In this document: piece by piece, positions 10,960-42,943 of the stretch
Position numbering within the stretch: the stretch's first letter is position 1
How the letters are laid out: the number at the start of each line of letters is the position of its first letter
Notes under the pieces: model-generated
The model's input: the letters and a program-made list of their open reading frames with translations, nothing else
Database searches by the model: none
Told to the model about the DNA's origin: nothing
Made by a program: the position numbers and the translations under genes
Origin: a virus
Taxonomy: Duplodnaviria > Heunggongvirae > Uroviricota > Caudoviricetes
Length of the DNA: 64,000 nucleotides
IMG/VR virus record: IMGVR_UViG_3300042870_001966
Strand: one strand, 5' to 3'

Positions 10960-12882
10960 TTATTTTTTTATGATTTTAGTAGAGTTAATTTGATCAACTG
11001 CCTGTAAAGAAGCAACGTATAATCCGCTAGTTAACTGATTAATATTGGAAGAGTATACGTATTTTCCAGCTGGCATGTCTTGATCAAGTATAACAAATTG
11101 TTCTGATCCGTTTAGGTCAACGATTACTAACTTAACCATTCCGCTATTCTTAACTGAGAAGTCAAAGCTTATCTCTCCAGTAGTTGGATTGGGAAATGCG
11201 GTAATTTCAAAGTTATCCAATTGACCAGAAGGTCCAGCCATTTTAGCAACGATTAAGATGCCGTTTGCTGCGGTGATTGATAAATCCCTAGATTGATTGT
11301 CTCCTGAGAATTTTCTAGAAGTATACAAAGGCGATGCCTCCCAATCAATTTGAGGTTTAAGTGCGATAAATCTCAATTTAAAAACTTCATAATTATCTGG
11401 AATCATGTAGCTTTTGTTAGCTGATGGATCGTAACCGGCCCATTCGATAATTCCGCCAGTTGGATTGAATGAAGACATCCACTGCATTGATTTAGCAGAG
11501 TTAGTAATGTCTTTAAATTCCAATAAGGTCTGATCGTATAACATTGCTAATTGAAGAGACGAAATATCCTTTCCTCCAGTTTTAACAGTAACCGGTATTT
11601 CTACTAGATTTCCTGAATTTACAGAAAGATTAGGAAGATTAACTTCAATTGAGCTCGTTGGAAAATCGTATTCAACTGTCATATCAATTACGTTTTCAGT
11701 TTGAGCTGGGGTTCCAGCCGGTGGATTGATCATTACTTCAATTGGCGTTAAACGAGCCATGTTGTAACCCGTACCGTTTGCATCTCCTGGAACAAGTACG
11801 TAATATTGAACTGAATCAGGTTGTCCTGGTAAAATGTCGTAGTAGAAGTTTGTTACTCCAGCATAAGTTGAAGTATAGTTAGTCGATGGAGATCCTGTGA
11901 TTGTTGTGTATTGGGCAGCAGTAAAGAACTTAACATCCTCAACGGCATTAGGCCATTCAGTGAATCTTCCAGCAATTCTACCAAATACTCCGTATGCATC
12001 AGTTATTGTTACGTTAGTTGAACCGTTAACATCTGCTGTATAGAAGTCGAATCCGGAAGGAGTCGCTGACCCTAACACCCATTGATTAATTAATTGAGCA
12101 TCTGCTGTTGATATAACGTTTCCTACCGTCATCGTATCACCTTTAATTGCAAGGCGTACATCATAATAAGTAGTATCAATAATTTCGCTAAATGCAAAAT
12201 TTCCACTTAGGTCAGTTACGTACGTATCATGAGTTCCCCAAGTACCTCCAGCTTTTACCTTTTTCTCAAGAGCTAAAGTTAAGTTCTTTGCTCCAGTTCC
12301 AGTAACGTTTGTAAATTTACCATGGAAGTCTAAAGTAGGCTGTTCCCATACACCGCCGTAGCTATGCTTGCTTAGAGTAGTATCTAAACCTGTCTGAGAT
12401 GCAGCGAGTGTAGTAAAAGAAGCTGCGCCACTAAACGTAAGAGCACTGATTGAGGGTAACGCATAAAACGATGCAGCTGCAACGTGAGTAAAGGTTATTT
12501 CAAAGGTTTCACCGTCCGCTAGAGTATAAGTACTGCTGTTTCCAGTATACACTAATGAAAGGGTTACGTAACCGGTAGCATTACTATCTACTGACTGTAA
12601 ATATAAGTTAGTAGGCGATCCAACTAGCGCAACTGATGCACTAGCAAATGCATCCTTATCGTAAAATATTCGAGTTTGAATACCTGTGTATTTTGAGATA
12701 GTTGCATTCTTTAGCGTGATTCTGGCTTTGGACTGACCTAGCGTACTTGTACCAACTTGATATGTCGTATCAATGATTGTCCAAATTCCTGCGCCTGGGG
12801 CAGGAGGTCCACTTTGAGCATAAACTCCAGTAGAGAGTGCGCACGTGACTAGTGCGAATAGAATAAAGATTATTTTTTTCAT
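10960..12882 (-). CDS. secreted protein with T9SS C-terminal sorting domain
   Basis: Signal peptide ..VYAQ. C-terminal FPNPTTGEISF...SGLYVASL...KIIKK matches the type-A T9SS C-terminal domain. Confidence 0.65.
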   Translation of the reverse strand: MKKIIFILFALVTCALSTGVYAQSGPPAPGAGIWTIIDTTYQVGTSTLGQSKARITLKNATISKYTGIQTRIFYDKDAFASASVALVGSPTNLYLQSVDSNATGYVTLSLVYTGNSSTYTLADGETFEITFTHVAAASFYALPSISALTFSGAASFTTLAASQTGLDTTLSKHSYGGVWEQPTLDFHGKFTNVTGTGAKNLTLALEKKVKAGGTWGTHDTYVTDLSGNFAFSEIIDTTYYDVRLAIKGDTMTVGNVISTADAQLINQWVLGSATPSGFDFYTADVNGSTNVTITDAYGVFGRIAGRFTEWPNAVEDVKFFTAAQYTTITGSPSTNYTSTYAGVTNFYYDILPGQPDSVQYYVLVPGDANGTGYNMARLTPIEVMINPPAGTPAQTENVIDMTVEYDFPTSSIEVNLPNLSVNSGNLVEIPVTVKTGGKDISSLQLAMLYDQTLLEFKDITNSAKSMQWMSSFNPTGGIIEWAGYDPSANKSYMIPDNYEVFKLRFIALKPQIDWEASPLYTSRKFSGDNQSRDLSITAANGILIVAKMAGPSGQLDNFEITAFPNPTTGEISFDFSVKNSGMVKLVIVDLNGSEQFVILDQDMPAGKYVYSSNINQLTSGLYVASLQAVDQINSTKIIKK

Positions 12883-15437: not shown

Positions 15438-15716
15438 ATGTTAATTATAACAGACTATTGGGCTCCATGGTGCGGTCCTTGTAAAGTAATGATGCCAGCT
15501 ATTTCAGAATTATCGGAACGATTTAATGTACCTGATTCTCAAATTGAGATTAGAAAGGTAAACGTTGACGAAAATCCTGAACTTGCCAGTAAATTTGGAA
15601 TCAGGGGAATCCCTACTCTTATTTTTGTTAAAGACGATCAAGAAGTAAAGAGACTTAGTGGTCTTAGAACAAAGAATCAGATACTTGAAGAAATCGAAAC
15701 AATACAAAATTCATAA
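15438..15716 (+). CDS. trx: thioredoxin
   Basis: WCGPC active site. Confidence 0.85.
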   Translation: MLIITDYWAPWCGPCKVMMPAISELSERFNVPDSQIEIRKVNVDENPELASKFGIRGIPTLIFVKDDQEVKRLSGLRTKNQILEEIETIQNS

Positions 15717-16399
15717 TGGAAATTACATTTATAAGTGATACACATTGGATTGTATCTGATCCAGTTAATACAGAAGACCTAAATGATCTTCTGCCTGGAG
15801 GTCCTATCTTGGTCCACGCAGGTGATGTATCTGGGCGTGGAACTGAGCGTGAAATTAGAGTATTCCTTAAATGGTTTAGTTCACAACCCTATATGCATAA
15901 GATCCTAATTGCTGGAAACCACGACTTCTTTTTTGAGGTAGCAAAACCAGAGGAGGTTCAGGCTCTGCTTGCTGAGTATCCTGGAATTACCTACTTAAAT
16001 GATAGTGGCGTAACGATTGAGGGTATTAAATTCTGGGGAAGTCCAGTAACTCCATTCTTTCATAATTGGGCATTTAATCGATATGAAAATGAAATAGGTC
16101 CACATTGGGATCTTATTCCGGAAGGAATTGATGTTCTGATAACGCACGGGCCTCCTCATGGAATCTTGGATAAAACTATCAGAGAAGGTTGGAGCGTTGG
16201 TTGTAAAAGTCTAAAGGCTAAGGTTGATCAAATTAAACCCCAAGTTCATGTATTCGGCCACATACACGAAGAGATGGGCCAAGTAGAAATAGGCGGTACT
16301 ACATTTATTAATGCGTCAGTGGTCGATGAACGATATCGACTATGGCATAATCGCCCGCCAGTTATTAACGTTGAACCAAGATCAGAAAATTTAGTATAA
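15716..16399 (+). CDS. calcineurin-like metallophosphoesterase
   Basis: DTH...GDVSGRG...GNHD...HGPP...GHIHE motifs. Confidence 0.7.
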   Translation: MEITFISDTHWIVSDPVNTEDLNDLLPGGPILVHAGDVSGRGTEREIRVFLKWFSSQPYMHKILIAGNHDFFFEVAKPEEVQALLAEYPGITYLNDSGVTIEGIKFWGSPVTPFFHNWAFNRYENEIGPHWDLIPEGIDVLITHGPPHGILDKTIREGWSVGCKSLKAKVDQIKPQVHVFGHIHEEMGQVEIGGTTFINASVVDERYRLWHNRPPVINVEPRSENLV

Positions 16400-16903: not shown

Positions 16904-16991
16904 GGAGGATTGGCAGAGTGGTCGATCGCGGCAGTCTTGAAAACTGTTGTACCGCAAGGTACCGTAGGTTCGAATCCTACATCCTCCGCCA
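16904..16991 (+). tRNA. tRNA-Ser(TGA), type II, CCA encoded
   Basis: Manual fold: acceptor GGAGGAT/ATCCTCC, anticodon loop CTTGAAA, long variable arm, T-loop TTCGAAT. Confidence 0.75.
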
Positions 16992-17210: not shown

Positions 17211-17909
17211 ATGTTAATTAAAAATCAAACGCCATACCTTGGCAAAATTCAGTTGAAGTTCGAGAGATTTCCTCACTACACTGGCAAAACTAAATTAAAT
17301 AAGATCCACTTGGATCTGGGATTTACTAAGTTAGTAAGCCGAATCCGACCTGAAAGAGATTTGGAAGGTTGGGCTGTAAATCCTGAATGTATTAAACAAA
17401 TTGAAGCAACTACTGGGCTAAAGGTAGGAGTTCATAAGTTCGGACCAGACGATGAGTACTCATTACCCAATTCATGCATGAATCCAGACGGAGTTTACGT
17501 TGGATCAATTGAAGAAGGTTGGTGGTACTACAACAATGGCCTCAGAGCAACAAAGGGATCTCATCCTCATACTGCATGGAGTAAGAAGGCAAAGCAGTGG
17601 ATTGGTTATTCTCACCGTGCTTCTTGTGCATTCGGAAAAGGCGATAAACTATTTGATGCTAAATGGAAACCTGCTGAACAAGACCTTCCTCAATACGAAA
17701 AGTTCTACGGCAAGCACCTGGACTCGTATTATAAAGAGTGCGAAGAATGGGCAAAGAGTACCTCTGACCATAAAGCGTCAGAAGAAGAAATGACCCTTGC
17801 TGGTTGGGCAGTAGATCATATTCCTTTTAGACTACGTGGTGCTAAGACAATTCATTCGTATGAAGATGCTTACAAGGCAGCAGTTAACTTTGCAAAATAC
17901 GTATCGTAA
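17211..17909 (+). CDS. hypothetical protein
   Basis: ORF only. Confidence 0.5.
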   Translation: MLIKNQTPYLGKIQLKFERFPHYTGKTKLNKIHLDLGFTKLVSRIRPERDLEGWAVNPECIKQIEATTGLKVGVHKFGPDDEYSLPNSCMNPDGVYVGSIEEGWWYYNNGLRATKGSHPHTAWSKKAKQWIGYSHRASCAFGKGDKLFDAKWKPAEQDLPQYEKFYGKHLDSYYKECEEWAKSTSDHKASEEEMTLAGWAVDHIPFRLRGAKTIHSYEDAYKAAVNFAKYVS

Positions 17910-20326: not shown

Positions 20327-20432
20327 GATTAGATGGGCGTAATGCGGGATGGTACCCAAGTCCCGAACTCGAAAGAGGTAAGGTTGTCTACTCCGTCTTG
20401 CACGGTATCCGGTTCGAGTCCGGCTCTAATCA
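20327..20432 (+). tRNA. tRNA-like element, 106 nt, anticodon undetermined
   Basis: Perfect 7-bp acceptor GATTAGA/TCTAATC. Canonical T-arm TCCGG-TTCGAGT-CCGGC. The internal 72 nt do not fold as a standard D/anticodon arm. Confidence 0.4.
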
Positions 20433-20541
20433 CCCGGATCCATGCACGTCGAGCGCAAACCAATCGCTCTTCAGGTAGATTTGCATGGATAAACAACCCG
20501 TCACGGTATACCCACAGGGTAGGAGTGAACTGGAGAGAAAT

Positions 20542-20613: not shown

Positions 20614-20802
20614 CGAAAGTATATCAACAGAAGTCCGACTTGCACGGATGAAAGGAACCTTGGCTCCATGGGATTAGCTACCCAACCGGAGAGATATAAA
20701 TGACCCAAGGTACTCTGTTCAGGTCCCTGCTCTACTGTGCACAGTATCAGGTTATGGGGAACAAACCATAAGTAAAAACCGGAGCACGGTATACTTTTAT
20801 TT

Positions 20803-25150: not shown

Positions 25151-25567
25151 ATGAATAGAGTCTTAATTCTCCTACGTGGAGTTCCTGGTGCAGGTAAATC
25201 AACTGTTGCCAATTCAATATGGAATGAGTATGCCGTTTGCGAAGCTGACAAGTATTTTCACAACAAGGAAACTGGTGCATACGAATTTGATGTTACTAAA
25301 CTGAAGGATGCACATGAATGGTGTAGATCCCAGGTCGAGACCAGAATGAAAGACAGTCTGGTGAATCCACAATTTTACCCAGAGATTGTTGTCTCAAACA
25401 CATTCACCCAAGAGTGGGAGATGCAGGCATACTTCGATCTTGCAAAACAATACGATTACCGAGTAGTTTCTCTAATCGTTGAGAACCGTCATGGTGGAGA
25501 GAACGTGCATGGAGTACCAGCAGATAAGGTACAAGCAATGAGGGATCGTTTCCAAATTAAATTATGA
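25151..25567 (+). CDS. P-loop kinase, polynucleotide kinase (Pnk) kinase-domain-like
   Basis: Walker A LLRGVPGAGKST. VVSNTF resembles the T4 Pnk IISDTN motif. Confidence 0.5.
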   Translation: MNRVLILLRGVPGAGKSTVANSIWNEYAVCEADKYFHNKETGAYEFDVTKLKDAHEWCRSQVETRMKDSLVNPQFYPEIVVSNTFTQEWEMQAYFDLAKQYDYRVVSLIVENRHGGENVHGVPADKVQAMRDRFQIKL

Positions 25568-29728: not shown

Positions 29729-30397
29729 ATGAAAATTACATTACAGCCTCATCAGCGAATATGGTTCACGTCAGATACTCACTACAAACACTCAAATATT
29801 TGTAGAGGAACGTCTAATTGGCCGGCCGAGAGTAAGACCAGAGATTTCGATACCCTGGATAAAATGAATGATACGATTGTTAACAATATCAATCACCTAG
29901 TCAGCGAAGACGATATTCTTTTCCACTTAGGAGACTGGTCGTTCGGAGGATTTGATAACATCCAGGAGTTCAGAGACAGGTTGCTCTGTAAGAACATTCA
30001 TTTGGTTCTAGGTAATCACGACCAGCACATCGAGAATGACAAGGGAGGAGTCAAGGCTCTATTTGCATCAGTGAATCATTACGTTAGACTGGAACTTACT
30101 GTTCCAAACGTGCCGAACGAAATAAATCCAGCGAAGACTATTAAGAAAACGTTTGTGCTATGTCATTACCCAATCGCAAGTTGGCACGATATGAACCGTG
30201 GAGTAATTCAATTACATGGTCACGTTCACTTAGGCCCACACAATAAATTACATGCAGGTAAAGCAATGGACGTTGGCATGGACGGCAACTTCATGGACCC
30301 ATATTCTCTTCAAGAAATCGCAAAGATTATGAGAGACCGTCCAGTTAAGTGTTTGGTTTTACCGAACGATCACCATGAAACAAACGAAGGAAGATGA
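29729..30397 (+). CDS. calcineurin-like metallophosphoesterase
   Basis: SDTHY...GDW...GNHD...HGHVH motifs. Confidence 0.7.
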   Translation: MKITLQPHQRIWFTSDTHYKHSNICRGTSNWPAESKTRDFDTLDKMNDTIVNNINHLVSEDDILFHLGDWSFGGFDNIQEFRDRLLCKNIHLVLGNHDQHIENDKGGVKALFASVNHYVRLELTVPNVPNEINPAKTIKKTFVLCHYPIASWHDMNRGVIQLHGHVHLGPHNKLHAGKAMDVGMDGNFMDPYSLQEIAKIMRDRPVKCLVLPNDHHETNEGR

Positions 30398-34117: not shown

Positions 34118-35320
34118 ATGGAAAATCAAAACAGCGTATGTTACATTGGAAAAGTAACAGAAATCAAGGCAATCGAAGGAGCTGACAATATTGAGTTAGC
34201 GATCATCGGTGGATGGAATTGTATTACTAAAAAAGGACTACACAAGGCGGACGAATTTGTTATCATTGCAACAACTGATGCAGTTATTCCGGAAGAGTTA
34301 TCCGAAAAATTGGGAGTAACCGGTTACCTGCGTAAGGGCAATCGAGTTAGAACAGTTAAGTTGAGAGGAGTTTACAGTGAGTGTCTAATCATTCCGCTTA
34401 ATGTGCTTGAAGGTTCAGAAGAAATGAAGATCGGAGTTAGTAAACAGCCTTGGGGCGATCAATTACAGTTGGGCCCTTATGACGATGCACTCGTTATTGA
34501 AGAAGGAGTTGACGTTAGTGAGATGCTTGGAATTTTCAAGTACGAACCGCCAGTTAGACAGGTCCAACTTGCTTCAGGTAAAAAGGTTCGTTATCAAGAC
34601 AATCCAAACTTTCATGTCTACTACAAGTTTCCTAACTTGAAAAATGTTAGTGGAATGTTTACTGAAGAGGATATTGTGCAAATCACGCGTAAGATCCACG
34701 GTACGAATGCACGATACGGTATAGTTAAGAAGAATCGCTTGTCCTTCATGGATAGGATTAAAAAATTCTTTGGATTCGCCGGAGAGCTCTTTGAGTACGA
34801 GTACGTTTATGGATCTCATAATGTCGAGAAGGGTTCTGATTCTCAAGGGTTCTATTCAACTGATGTCTGGAGAACAATTGCCGAGAAGTACGATATCAAG
34901 AACAGGTTGCTTACCTTAGCAAAAACTAAAAATAGGATTGGTGAACTTGGAGCTGGTATTGTAATTTACGGAGAAATTTACGGTGCAGGTATTCAAAAGA
35001 ATTACGAGTACGGTCTGACTGATATTGAATTCGTTGGATTCGATGCCACAGTAAACGGCAAATACGAGTCCACTATTTACACTGAATTCCTTTTCAAAGA
35101 AGCGCTAGAGTTACCTCACGTTGGAGTCCTATACACAGGACCGTGGTCACAAGAGACACAAGACCAGTTCGTCTTTGGTAATATGATCAAAGGAACTAAG
35201 GTGCCGCATGAAGGCATTGTTATTAAGCACATAAGCGGTGAGCGTAATCGAGTAGCAAAGGTAATTAATCCAGACTATTTGATTTACGGAGAAAAGCACG
35301 ATATTGGAGACTCACATTAA
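34118..35320 (+). CDS. ATP-dependent RNA ligase (Rnl2-like motifs) fused to N-terminal tRNA-binding OB (Myf/Trbp111-like) domain
   Basis: N-terminal GKV.EI..IEGADNIELA..GG tRNA_bind pattern. Ligase motifs KIHGTN (I), EGIVIK (IV), AKVIN (V). Confidence 0.65.
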   Translation: MENQNSVCYIGKVTEIKAIEGADNIELAIIGGWNCITKKGLHKADEFVIIATTDAVIPEELSEKLGVTGYLRKGNRVRTVKLRGVYSECLIIPLNVLEGSEEMKIGVSKQPWGDQLQLGPYDDALVIEEGVDVSEMLGIFKYEPPVRQVQLASGKKVRYQDNPNFHVYYKFPNLKNVSGMFTEEDIVQITRKIHGTNARYGIVKKNRLSFMDRIKKFFGFAGELFEYEYVYGSHNVEKGSDSQGFYSTDVWRTIAEKYDIKNRLLTLAKTKNRIGELGAGIVIYGEIYGAGIQKNYEYGLTDIEFVGFDATVNGKYESTIYTEFLFKEALELPHVGVLYTGPWSQETQDQFVFGNMIKGTKVPHEGIVIKHISGERNRVAKVINPDYLIYGEKHDIGDSH

Positions 35321-35334
35321 TAAAACAAATACAA

Positions 35335-35808
35335 ATGGAAGAAGAAAAATTACCGATCAGAATCTATTTAGATGACGTTCGAACACCAATTGAACAGGAC
35401 TGGATAGTTGTTAGATCATACCAGGAGTTCAAGGACAAGGTGATGGAAATTGGATTAAAGAACATTCACATGATCTCATTGGATCACGACTTGGGTGACT
35501 CAGCTATGTCAGAGTACTTCACGAATGTAAGTCCTAACTATAAGCTAGACTACACGAACATTACTGAAAAAACTGGAATGGATTGCACTAAGTGGTTGGT
35601 GAATCAGTTCTACGACGAGAATCCAAAGAGAATTGAGATGAGTCGTTTCGATAAGCGTAATGTGCCGATTCGGTTTCCAGCAGTCTACGTACACTCAGCG
35701 AATCCAATTGGATCAGCGAACATGATGGGTTACATTAATAACTTCTTCATGAATGAGGGAGAACCTCAAAACTGCGTGAGAGTTCAGATACCTCACACGG
35801 TAATGTAA
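35335..35808 (+). CDS. hypothetical protein
   Basis: ORF in the RNA-repair block. Confidence 0.45.
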   Translation: MEEEKLPIRIYLDDVRTPIEQDWIVVRSYQEFKDKVMEIGLKNIHMISLDHDLGDSAMSEYFTNVSPNYKLDYTNITEKTGMDCTKWLVNQFYDENPKRIEMSRFDKRNVPIRFPAVYVHSANPIGSANMMGYINNFFMNEGEPQNCVRVQIPHTVM

Positions 35809-36464: not shown

Positions 36465-36545
36465 GCCCTCTTGGCGGAATTGGTAGACGCGCTAGACTTA
36501 GGATCTAGTCTTAGGGTGAGAGTTCGAGTCTCTCAGAGGGTACCA
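36465..36545 (+). tRNA. tRNA-Leu(TAG)
   Basis: Class-II D-arm TGGCGGAATTGGTAGACGC. Loop CTTAGGA. Short (9 nt) variable region. CCA encoded. Confidence 0.6.
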
Positions 36546-36697
36546 AACACATATCACAAATAAAAATGTGAGTTACTTTGAAATAGCCAATTATAAGCCA
36601 ACATAAAGCCGTTGGGTACAGAAGGAGTAATTAACCGGAGTATAGGCAACAATTGTGACACTGTAACAAATACCCATTTGAGTGGTATGTTTTAAAT

Positions 36698-36818
36698 AGT
36701 CAGGTGGCGGAATTGGTAGACGCTATGTGGTGCGGAACTCGCTTCGTTCACCACTCCCTTAGCGGGGAAAACAAAGGTAAGAGATGTGACCATGCAGGTT
36801 CGAATCCTGTCCTGACTA
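36698..36818 (+). ncRNA. 121-nt tRNA-like RNA (Leu-like acceptor/D/T arms with about 45-nt extra internal sequence)
   Basis: Acceptor AGTCAGG/CCTGACT. D-arm identical to the tRNA-Leu at 36465. T-arm GCAGG-TTCGAAT-CCTGT. Internal hairpins GTGGT..ACCAC and GAAC-TCGCTTC-GTTC. Confidence 0.4.
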
Positions 36819-42506: not shown

Positions 42507-42590
42507 GGAAGAGTAATTCAGCTGGCGCTGGACCTAGTCTTGAAAACTAGTGGTACCTTCGGGTATGGGGATCGATACCTCACTCTTCCG
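42507..42590 (+). tRNA. tRNA-Ser(TGA)-like, type II, non-canonical T-loop ATCGATA
   Basis: 8-bp acceptor. Anticodon arm CTAGT-CTTGAAA-ACTAG. Variable-arm hairpin with TTCG loop. Confidence 0.5.
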
Positions 42591-42686: not shown

Positions 42687-42762
42687 GCCTCTGTGGGTAA
42701 ACTGGTAAAGCCGCTTGACTTAGGATCAAGAGATTTTGTGGGTTCGAATCCCACCAGAGGTA
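42687..42762 (+). tRNA. tRNA-Leu(TAG)-like, type-I length (7-nt variable region)
   Basis: Anticodon arm CTTGA-CTTAGGA-TCAAG; T-arm GTGGG-TTCGAAT-CCCAC. Confidence 0.55.
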
Positions 42763-42769
42763 CAAAAAT

Positions 42770-42855: not shown

Positions 42856-42943
42856 GGAGAGTGAAGCAACAAGGTGTTGTCGCCGCCTGCTAAGCGAGCG
42901 GTTCCCGAAAGGGAATGGGGATCGAGACCTCCACTCTCCGCCA
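42856..42943 (+). tRNA. tRNA-Ser(GCT)-like, type II, non-canonical T-loop ATCGAGA
   Basis: Acceptor GGAGAGT/ACTCTCC plus CCA. Bulged anticodon stem, loop CTGCTAA. Variable-arm hairpin TTCCC-GAAA-GGGAA. Confidence 0.5.

Follow-up and report, generated by a model that had tools for sequence, protein, structure and literature searches.

What kind of RNA is encoded by a gene that carries the two ends of a tRNA and has no recognisable anticodon arm between them? The question is posed by a 106-nt element (e106) in a 64,000-nt stretch of DNA from a virus of the Caudoviricetes (IMG/VR record IMGVR_UViG_3300042870_001966; this whole stretch is called the window). An earlier note, made from the sequence alone, had grouped e106 with a 121-nt Leu-like element (e121), two Ser-like tRNA genes with odd T-loops and two short-armed tRNA genes with anticodon TAG, and had suggested that such elements might be decoys for anticodon nucleases, intron-containing tRNAs, or small RNAs of a new kind on which RNase P and Z act. 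The sequence features that it claimed for all of these elements were present where it had placed them. The window carries 26 tRNA genes in three groups on the + strand, which cover all 20 amino acids (ARAGORN, default settings), and all 26 calls were backed by Rfam. Judged by its encoded Gp20-type portal, family B polymerase and topoisomerase II subunit, the phage is T4-like, and a type IX secretion sorting domain predicted on one of its proteins points to a host among the Bacteroidota. Beyond single tRNAs, the tRNA region showed no resemblance to deposited phage genomes. Three kinds of tRNA-like gene were distinguished in this setting, namely e106, e121 and a pair of (8/4) tRNA-Ser genes; their coordinates are given in Table 1.

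Table 1 Features of the window discussed in the text. Numbers preceded by L designate related loci
Feature	Coordinates	Strand	Evidence or remark
e106, one of a conserved family of phage tRNA-like RNAs that do not decode	20327..20432	+	R1 126.7 bits
e106 acceptor stem, 5′ strand	20327..20333	+	pairs with 20425-20431; discriminator A at 20432
e106 D-stem-like helix, 5′ strand	20336..20339	+	pairs with 20385-20388; closes three-way junction
e106 hairpin A, GGGA-UGGU-ACCC	20346..20357	+	GG in loop always
e106 CC...GG helix with variable insertion site	20362..20383	+	window copy holds CUC-GAAA-GAG
e106 short hairpin CCGU-CUUGC-ACGG at anticodon-arm place	20393..20405	+	4-bp invariant stem
e106 T arm, CCGG-UUCGAGU-CCGG	20409..20423	+	canonical T-loop
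AAA_33 kinase, candidate polynucleotide kinase	25151..25567	+	Pfam AAA_33, E = 4.3e-11
Homologue of the Pfam Metallophos-matching protein of L154	29729-30397		
RNA ligase, Naegleria Rnl5 type	34118..35320	+	Pfam RNA_ligase and PHA02142 OB fold
cREC cyclic-phosphate-processing protein	35335..35808	+	Pfam cREC_REC, E = 2.3e-20
tRNA-Leu(UAG), type I variable region	36465..36545	+	ARAGORN; Rfam tRNA 57.8 bits
e121, tRNA-like gene, AGTCAGG/CCTGACT-A chassis, Leu-type D arm, unique interior of ~70 nt	36698..36818	+	
(8/4) tRNA-Ser(UGA)	42507..42590	+	ARAGORN -ps: 8-bp acceptor, 4-bp T stem
tRNA-Leu(UAG), type I, variable region ~7 nt	42687..42763	+	Rfam tRNA 59.4 bits
(8/4) tRNA-Ser(GCU) with encoded CCA	42856..42943	+	ARAGORN -ps

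At the DNA level e106 reads GATTAGA-TG-GGCG...CCGG-TTCGAGT-CCGG-C-TCTAATC-A. Its acceptor is the perfect 7-bp stem that had been described (GATTAGA/TCTAATC), followed by A73, and the canonical T-loop was likewise borne out; in the T stem, four positions form Watson-Crick pairs and the fifth is a U/C mismatch. ARAGORN made no call at default settings, and a 6.5-kb scan against Rfam returned no match for e106 at E ≤ 10. When scored in a 223-nt scan with the Rfam tRNA model RF00005, a check proposed in the earlier note, e106 reached 16.5 bits (E = 0.6), below the gathering threshold of 29 bits, and the alignment comprised the acceptor and T arm only, with the D and anticodon arms carried as unaligned inserts. 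Single-sequence folding z-scores were unremarkable for both e106 (−0.99) and e121 (−1.44), and the case for e106 therefore rests on comparative data and not on thermodynamics.

Relatives of e106 were gathered by exact-pattern scans of viral contigs and metagenome contigs, and a covariance model (R1) was built from ten of the homologues. Using R1, we recovered 31 distinct full-length family members (91–133 nt) at ≥60 bits (range 60–130 bits), plus shorter forms; the next match below these members scored 35.6 bits, and ordinary tRNAs scored at most 27 bits. A search pattern from which the T arm had been left out returned almost the same set of members, so the near-invariant T arm is not a search artefact. 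Two patterns gave zero hits in bacterial and archaeal genomes (one genome for each of 185,579 species), and a BLAST search of 50,697 INPHARED records found no family member in deposited phages. By these searches, the family is so far known only from uncultivated phage contigs.

The 31-sequence alignment placed 98.2% of cells in standard pairs and contained changes on both sides of 11 pairs (78 cells). None of 500 shuffles matched these pairing and covariation values, and sliding the 3′ partners by 1–3 columns lowered pairing to 24–56%. A comparative alignment of this kind had been suggested in order to look for compensatory changes as opposed to decay, and the 11 pairs changed on both sides are the opposite of decay. 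With 31 distinct homologues keeping the fold, on the evidence of the alignment, through compensatory changes, a chance origin of e106 is excluded. Four helices in particular are supported by such changes in the aligned sequences: the acceptor, the T stem, a D-stem-like helix and a hairpin that we call hairpin A.

Within the acceptor stem, six of seven pairs had changed on both sides, 13 intact versions of the 5′ strand were represented and 99.5% of cells were paired, while the discriminator was A in 22 members, C in 4, U in 3 and G in 2. The varying acceptor sequence and discriminator argue against one specific synthetase, or any one acceptor-reading partner, for the family. The T stem showed a compensatory change to UCGG/CCGA in L157 and L159. 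The D-stem-like helix is formed by positions 10–13 pairing with 59–62, at the place of the canonical D-stem and after U8 and G9; it was paired in 98.4% of cells, with a C-G to U-A replacement in two sequences and an alternation of G-U and A-U (18 to 13). RNAalifold, applied to the 10-sequence set, offered a competing register for positions 8–13, and the 10–13:59–62 pairing was preferred since it accounts for the paired change in L118 and L149. Hairpin A occurred in 19 sequence versions (e.g., GGAA/UUCC, GGUA/UACC and GAGA/.CUC) with two pairs changed on both sides, and the GG of its loop is likely the equivalent of G18 G19. Two other foldings of this region, a GGGA...UCCC hairpin closing an 11-nt loop and a long hairpin proposed by RNAalifold at positions 20–38, were rejected on the same grounds, namely that a G-C to A-U change is compensated only in the GGGA-NGGN-NCCC register.

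Two further helices, the CC/GG helix and the stem of the short hairpin, were invariant across members, and the covariation evidence does not bear on them. What varies is the sequence that each encloses. The insertion site within the CC/GG helix holds a GUAA tetraloop in 91-nt members and ~45 nt in five members of 132–133 nt, and the inner helix that it accommodates covaries; the loop of the short hairpin is hypervariable, with 14 sequences of 4–10 nt. A looser search additionally recovered short forms of 75–80 nt (L334, L194, L252 and L365), in which the short hairpin is missing and the D-like helix leads straight to the T arm. Their T stems (GUGGG/CCCAC, GUAGG/CCUAC and ACAGG/CCUGU) differ in sequence and are all paired. 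At the place of the D-loop lies a three-way junction composed of an invariant GUAAUG strand, the GG hairpin, the CC/GG helix and GGUUG, so that the D “loop” of e106 is a 45-nt junction with the GG on a separate hairpin, as against a normal D-loop of 7–11 nt containing G18 G19. As far as the aligned sequences define it, the conserved heart of the family is an acceptor/T minihelix together with this three-way junction at the D position. As a separate observation, alignment columns 19 and 33 co-varied in a non-Watson-Crick manner (C with A seven times, A with G 20 times and A with A four times).

These alignments also bear on the possibility that e106 is a decaying tRNA pseudogene or, as the earlier note had offered, an intron-interrupted tRNA gene. 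With introns allowed, ARAGORN called e106 as a tRNA-Ser(ACT) with a 25-nt intron at a threshold lowered to 80% and e121 as a tRNA-Ala(AGC) with a 30-nt intron at one lowered to 90%, and the phage encodes ligase, kinase and phosphoesterase-type genes whose products could heal and seal the resulting ends. Against this, relatives show ATT, AAT or ACC instead of the ACT triplet of e106, nowhere is there a conserved 7-nt loop with U33, short members lack the region altogether, and the interiors in the window and at seven related loci matched no known ribozyme, intron family or other Rfam family. Nor does a set of at least 31 distinct sequences, in which changes are compensated and the core is invariant, look like the remains of a gene; it is the reverse of decay. 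The varying triplet, the short forms without the region and the covarying conserved fold led us to reject both readings, which we consider extremely unlikely. As a 7-nt loop with U33 is missing from every family member, the e106 RNA is unable to decode. A tmRNA-like tag was rejected as well: a single frame ends in UAA, and its substitutions among relatives are, as judged by eye, non-synonymous.

What the comparison establishes, at the level of sequence conservation, is thus a structured RNA that has kept the top half of a tRNA and lacks the anticodon. Retained in e106 are the 7-bp acceptor, the T arm with its canonical loop, U8 and a D-stem at positions 10–13. The top half of a tRNA is the part that is read by RNase P, by 3′-end processing, by CCA addition and by elbow-binding factors, and an acceptor/T minihelix suffices for recognition by RNase P and the CCA-adding enzyme. 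As the explanation of the whole set of observations, we consider it probable that e106 is a functional non-decoding tRNA mimic, which would be matured as a tRNA and would bind a partner of the tRNA top half or elbow. According to this explanation, e106 would be transcribed within the tRNA operon and then excised and stabilised by the tRNA maturation enzymes; we infer both the excision from the operon transcript and the tRNA-like stabilisation from the acceptance of an acceptor/T minihelix by RNase P and the CCA-adding enzyme. The mature RNA would act by attaching to some partner whose usual ligand is the top half or elbow of tRNA, with a dispensable mini-hairpin standing in for the anticodon arm and the three-way junction for the D-loop. 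The earlier suggestion of novel small RNAs that mature through RNase P and Z fits both e106 and e121, with their conserved covarying tRNA-like ends, their placement in tRNA operons and their want of an anticodon. By contrast, the missing anticodon loop throughout the e106 family argues against simple substrate mimicry of the kind expected of an anticodon-nuclease decoy.

Genomic location was examined for indications of the partner or process that the mimic might serve. In most loci, members of the e106 family lie on the same strand as a tRNA cluster and inside or beside it; in the window, e106 starts 4 nt past a tRNA-Met and abuts another conserved structured RNA (20433-20541). Some members are neighbours of genes for RNA repair. 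In L120, L147 and L154, a member lies 84, 88 and 210 nt, respectively, upstream of an RNA ligase gene on the same strand (the L147 ligase being too diverged for tblastn with the window protein), and in L120 and L154 the DNA compared around the member contained no tRNA. In two other loci, L004 and L118, a ligase-cREC-tRNA-Leu(UAG) series is followed downstream by a conserved spacer and then by the member, at the place where the window has e121. The N-terminal OB domain of the window's ligase was matched to structure 5cot, an RNA ligase from Naegleria gruberi; the DNA upstream of this ligase gene contains no e106-type element. Homologues of the window's AAA_33 kinase were found near family members in L116, L119, L120 and L154.

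One way to account for such an arrangement is that the tRNA-like fold serves as punctuation: cleaved by RNase P, it would set neighbouring transcripts apart or control them, for example the mRNA of a downstream RNA ligase. The elements upstream of same-strand ligase genes in the three loci above and the abutment of e106 on a structured RNA are in keeping with a signal of this kind. It would, however, leave the strongly conserved D-domain junction unexplained, most copies lie among tRNAs that already supply cleavage sites, and the window's ligase gene lacks an upstream element. We therefore consider punctuation quite improbable as the main role.

The association with repair genes was also assessed by counting. 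In the flanks compared, 14 of 40 e106-family loci contained any repair gene, and a member was present in seven of 80 cREC-anchored loci. A tight tie to cREC was rejected on the latter count and on the finding that no chassis element (described below) lay within 1.5 kb. The link between e106 and repair genes in these genomes is thus suggestive only and statistically weak, and the adjacency to ligase genes could be explained by shared ancestry of genome order. Returning to the mimic, its role most likely concerns tRNA damage and repair, a view that we hold loosely and favour since some copies adjoin RNA ligase, kinase and phosphoesterase genes and since the phage itself has repair genes. The RNA might occupy a tRNA-targeting host enzyme, either as a sponge or as a pseudo-substrate that cannot be cleaved, or else it might serve the repair module as cofactor or regulator.

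The second element, e121, allowed us to ask whether e106 is an isolated case. As had been claimed, it has an acceptor, a D arm and a T arm: the acceptor is AGTCAGG/CCTGACT with A73, the D arm is of Leu type (TGGCGGAATTGGTAGACGC, identical to that of the tRNA-Leu at 36465 in the window), and a T arm is present; the two extra hairpins ascribed to it appeared in the predicted minimum-free-energy fold. Against the Rfam tRNA model, e121 scored 34.5 bits (threshold 29) on its acceptor, D and T arms, with 51 nt treated as an unaligned local end at the place of the anticodon arm. No homologue of its interior was found in 4.3 Mb of related loci. The frame around that interior, AGTCAGG...CCTGTCCTGACTA, proved to be a nearly invariant chassis common to at least 140 distinct phage genes whose interiors are unrelated and diverse in length. 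Its 22-nt 3′ half, matched exactly, turned up in no fewer than 120 viral contigs and as many as six times within 5 kb; 144 chassis elements yielded 140 distinct sequences of 54–235 nt. The interiors of these 140 elements fell into 122 similarity clusters, 111 of them singletons, and the differences visible within the small clusters were mostly in loops. The Leu-like 5′ D region was kept in 91 of the 140. At default settings, ARAGORN called 31 chassis elements and assigned them scattered, unrelated anticodons. The two element types are also connected, as the e106 core module occurs on the AGTCAGG chassis in L334 and L364 and on other T arms as well. On this sequence evidence, we take e121 to be a second case of the e106 strategy, built on a different and widely shared chassis. 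Chassis sequences were not found in the literature searched, and the pattern of a chassis plus a hypervariable body appears to be unreported.

The multiplicity of interiors raises a serious alternative, which is compatible with the mimic reading and which we nevertheless judge rather unlikely: the tRNA top half might be a scaffold that provides processing and stability only, the inserted bodies being the working parts as aptamers, sponges or antisense RNAs. The spread and copy number of the chassis, its many unrelated interiors with loop-centred differences, the transfer of the e106 core module between chassis and T arms, and the tolerance of the e106 family for inserts of 4 to ~45 nt at one site would all be expected of a scaffold. 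Yet structure alone would serve that purpose, whereas the chassis sequence is near-invariant across very different contigs. A canonical tRNA-Lys(UUU) is built on the same chassis, which makes the chassis a working tRNA frame as well; a search of the window for antisense targets of the e106 and e121 interiors yielded none of ≥11 nt; and the e106 D-domain sits at what would be the tRNA elbow, and is thus probably part of the mimicry and not cargo.

The Leu-like features of e121 suggest another possibility, that these RNAs are aminoacylated carriers that do not decode, with LeuRS charging e121-type RNAs and the leucine passing to a non-ribosomal transferase, or with LeuRS or EF-Tu being sequestered. 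Bacterial LeuRS identity resides in A73 and the tertiary structure of the elbow and not in the anticodon. A73 is named as the common discriminator in PMC6614811, where U8-A14 pairing is given as an identity element. The A73 of e121, its D arm shared with a tRNA-Leu of the same phage, and the retention of a Leu-like D region in most chassis elements agree with charging of this kind. On the other hand, the Leu D arm has been lost in many chassis members, the e106 family has another structure at the place of the D arm and no fixed discriminator, and no transferase gene was seen nearby. We think it very unlikely that a carrier function explains these genes.

A more far-reaching reading would combine both element types: the nearly invariant chassis would be a cassette holder for a very wide range of unrelated structured RNA bodies, and the e106 module (the GUAAUG/GG three-way junction) an RNA inhibitor or cofactor in a conflict of tRNA-targeting host nucleases with the phage's repair set of ligase, kinase and phosphoesterase. 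From the sequence patterns we regard this as doubtful; if true, it would add to RNA-based counter-defence a class so far undescribed, one that relies on the tRNA machinery of the host for its maturation.

Among known RNAs, the closest analogue of e106 and e121 is T4 RNA C. The stable RNAs C and D of T4 (species 1 and 2; rnaC and rnaD) are, like e106 and e121, small RNAs with tRNA-like ends whose genes lie among the clustered tRNA genes of a T4-type phage. RNA C is 139 nt long; its 5′ end pairs with its 3′ end, and these ends and a T arm (CCGGG-UUCGAAU-CCCGG) enclose an interior that is not that of a tRNA. The analogy with these species drawn in the earlier note was therefore apt, the window phage being itself T4-like and RNA C folding with paired ends and a T arm. 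The likeness is one of kind: R1 gave no match that would indicate homology of e106 to rnaC or rnaD (L156), the acceptor-like stem of RNA C contains U-U mismatches whereas that of e106 is perfect, and RNA C lacks the GUAAUG/GG three-way junction. The role of RNAs C and D is still unknown after about fifty years (PMC3014915). The e106 family constitutes a much larger, covariation-supported set of the same general kind. In this set the D-domain junction stands out as the conserved core, one site accepts insertions, one hairpin can be dispensed with, and the gene of an Rnl5-type RNA ligase recurs as a neighbour; with these features in hand, the question can be approached by experiment.

Comparison with other RNAs places e106 further. 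It resembles canonical tRNA (RF00005) in its acceptor, U8, D-stem position, T arm and loop, and placement in tRNA operons, and differs in having neither a D-loop of normal size nor a 5-bp anticodon stem with a 7-nt loop. Use of tRNA-like ends for processing by RNase P and RNase Z or for factor binding, apart from ordinary decoding, has precedents in tmRNA, the TMERs of MHV68, the CI RNA precursor of phage P4 and the tRNA-Other of Bacillus cereus. tmRNA is marked by a G3:U70 pair and a tag reading frame; by comparison, ARAGORN detected no tmRNA, and positions 3:70 in the e106 family are U-A or C-G, with no G3:U70. To our knowledge, the MHV68 TMERs, the P4 CI RNA precursor and B. cereus tRNA-Other are unrelated to e106 in sequence and host, and we know of no pattern of a chassis plus a hypervariable body in any of these four systems. 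Thus e106 and e121 are new examples of the general kind represented by T4 RNA C; the Ser genes are of a type already known.

The two Ser-like genes had been described accurately with respect to position and anticodon (TGA and GCT). That they lack T54-Psi55-C56 was an overstatement: in the 8/4 register the T-loop reads A54-U55-C56-G57-A58 (AUCGAKA), which keeps U55, C56 and A58 and is unusual at 54 only. ARAGORN missed both genes at default settings; at a lowered threshold, each showed a long variable arm, G73 and a 12-bp acceptor branch. The UGA gene scored 47.9 bits against the Rfam tRNA-Sec model RF01852 (threshold 47), with a 6-bp D stem and 4-nt loop aligned, and the GCU gene had no Rfam match at E ≤ 10. 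A tRNA-Sec assignment for the former was rejected, as its anticodon is UGA (Ser) and not UCA and its branch is 8/4 and not a 13-bp 8/5 branch. Their T arm, TGGGGATCGAKACCTC, was found in more than 116 viral contigs. A perfect 8-bp acceptor accompanied 88 of 110 unique copies, compared with ~1% expected by chance, and 76 of these 88 had G73; the anticodons were CGA, UGA, GGA and GCU. (8/4) tRNA-Ser genes have been found in the tRNA clusters of uncultivated phages, where they were grouped with allo-tRNAs (Mukai et al., Nucleic Acids Res 45:2776, online 2016, PMC5389517), and charging by SerRS and use in translation have been reported for the class (PMC5389517). The window genes share with it the 8-bp acceptor, 4-bp T stem, long variable arm, G73, Ser anticodons and location in phage clusters, and show no substantial difference from it, the A54 T-loop being common to the whole phage class. 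By these features, both are ordinary members of the known (8/4) tRNA-Ser class. They are accompanied by the canonical tRNA-Ser(TGA) noted previously at 16904, which ARAGORN detected.

These results also show that standard tRNA finders both miss phage genes, as with (8/4) tRNA-Ser, and mis-call them, as with the chassis elements given scattered anticodons; errors of either sort would bias any estimate of phage tRNA repertoires or codon reassignment. Finally, bacterial tRNA-Leu is almost always type II, and the Streptomyces type I tRNA-Leu that was tested was not charged by E. coli LeuRS (PMC6614811). The two tRNA-Leu(UAG) genes of the window have, as first described, short variable loops of about 7–9 nt.

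The structured RNA content of the main tRNA cluster extends beyond e106, the conserved, tRNA-like and non-decoding phage RNA, into a second conserved region lying directly 3′ of it, whose predicted fold combines a long hairpin (ATCCATGCA/TGCATGGAT) with an inner stem (GAGCG/CGCTC). Counterparts of this region occur in the related loci L001, L122 and L116, and a comparison of five sequences revealed both-sided changes at 2 pairs. Because the matching region of L003 is preceded by a suppressor tRNA, not by e106, we regard it as an independent unit. Separately, window positions 20716–20777, placed between tRNA-Asp and tRNA-Glu, resemble the Rfam freshwater-1 RNA motif (RF02979; 67.3 bits, slightly below the gathering score of 72), and similar sequences lie near the e106 copies of L145 and L141.

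Within e106 itself, the junction nucleotides at columns 19 and 33 of the family alignment A4 (window 20345 and 20358) occur as C-A in 7 members, A-G in 20 and A-A in 4; the combination of C with G was found in 0 cases in this alignment. The two columns co-vary without Watson–Crick logic, a pattern that may reflect a tertiary or non-canonical contact or may be produced by phylogeny alone.

Several e106 copies in relatives have stop-anticodon tRNAs as neighbors. Among L003 (tRNA at 2229–2306) and the surroundings of the e106 copies in L125 and L128 there are an anticodon-TTA tRNA, reading the UAA stop codon and standing immediately 3′ of e106, and “tRNA-SeC(tca)” calls, reading UGA. These TTA and tca tRNAs could be suppressor tRNAs or, possibly, stop-anticodon versions of the (8/4) type (8-bp acceptor and 4-bp T stem).

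The window additionally carries a dispersed RNA heal-and-seal gene set of five genes, partly candidate assignments (see table); in L154, ligase, phosphoesterase and kinase genes fall inside ~3 kb around the e106 copy. Shortly upstream of the main tRNA cluster, 17211–17909 is a predicted anti-defence gene: its product has a Pfam match (E = 5.5e-22) to Tad6, which inhibits type I Thoeris. A phage protein encoded at 10960–12882 combines a cohesin domain with a C-terminal sorting domain of the type IX secretion system, which suggests a Bacteroidota host.

Features located in the window and in related loci
Feature	Location	Remark
Conserved structured region, ~108 nt	window 20433–20541	directly 3′ of e106
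Rnl5-type RNA ligase	window 34118–35320	
cREC cyclic-phosphate-processing protein	window 35335–35808	
AAA_33 kinase	window 25151–25567	
Candidate metallophosphoesterase	window 29729–30397	homology to L154 protein matching Pfam Metallophos
Candidate metallophosphoesterase	window 15716–16399	from reading of sequence only
tRNA-Leu-like gene with D-loop hairpin	L004 3326–3432 (= L121 6977–7083)	
tRNA-Leu-like genes with D-loop hairpin	L155, L148, L136, L145, L142	

Both tRNA-Leu(UAG) genes of the window (36465–36545 and 42687–42763) have short variable regions and are type I, a form described as rare among bacteria; when tested, a Streptomyces type I tRNA-Leu(CAA) was uncharged by E. coli LeuRS (PMC6614811). 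L330 encodes a tRNA-Leu(tag) of 74 nt, a hint that short-variable-region tRNA-Leu is common in this phage group. Several tRNA-Leu-like genes carry a hairpin of ~20 nt within the D-loop (GCG-GAA-[hairpin]-UGGUAGA-CGC), and such insertion is a second recurrent route to a larger D domain in these phages. Finally, the 152-nt spacer separating tRNA-Leu(UAG) from the tRNA-like gene e121 (window 36546–36697) has conserved counterparts in L004 and L118, matched by nhmmer at E ~1e-25, although the tRNA-like gene downstream differs there from e121.
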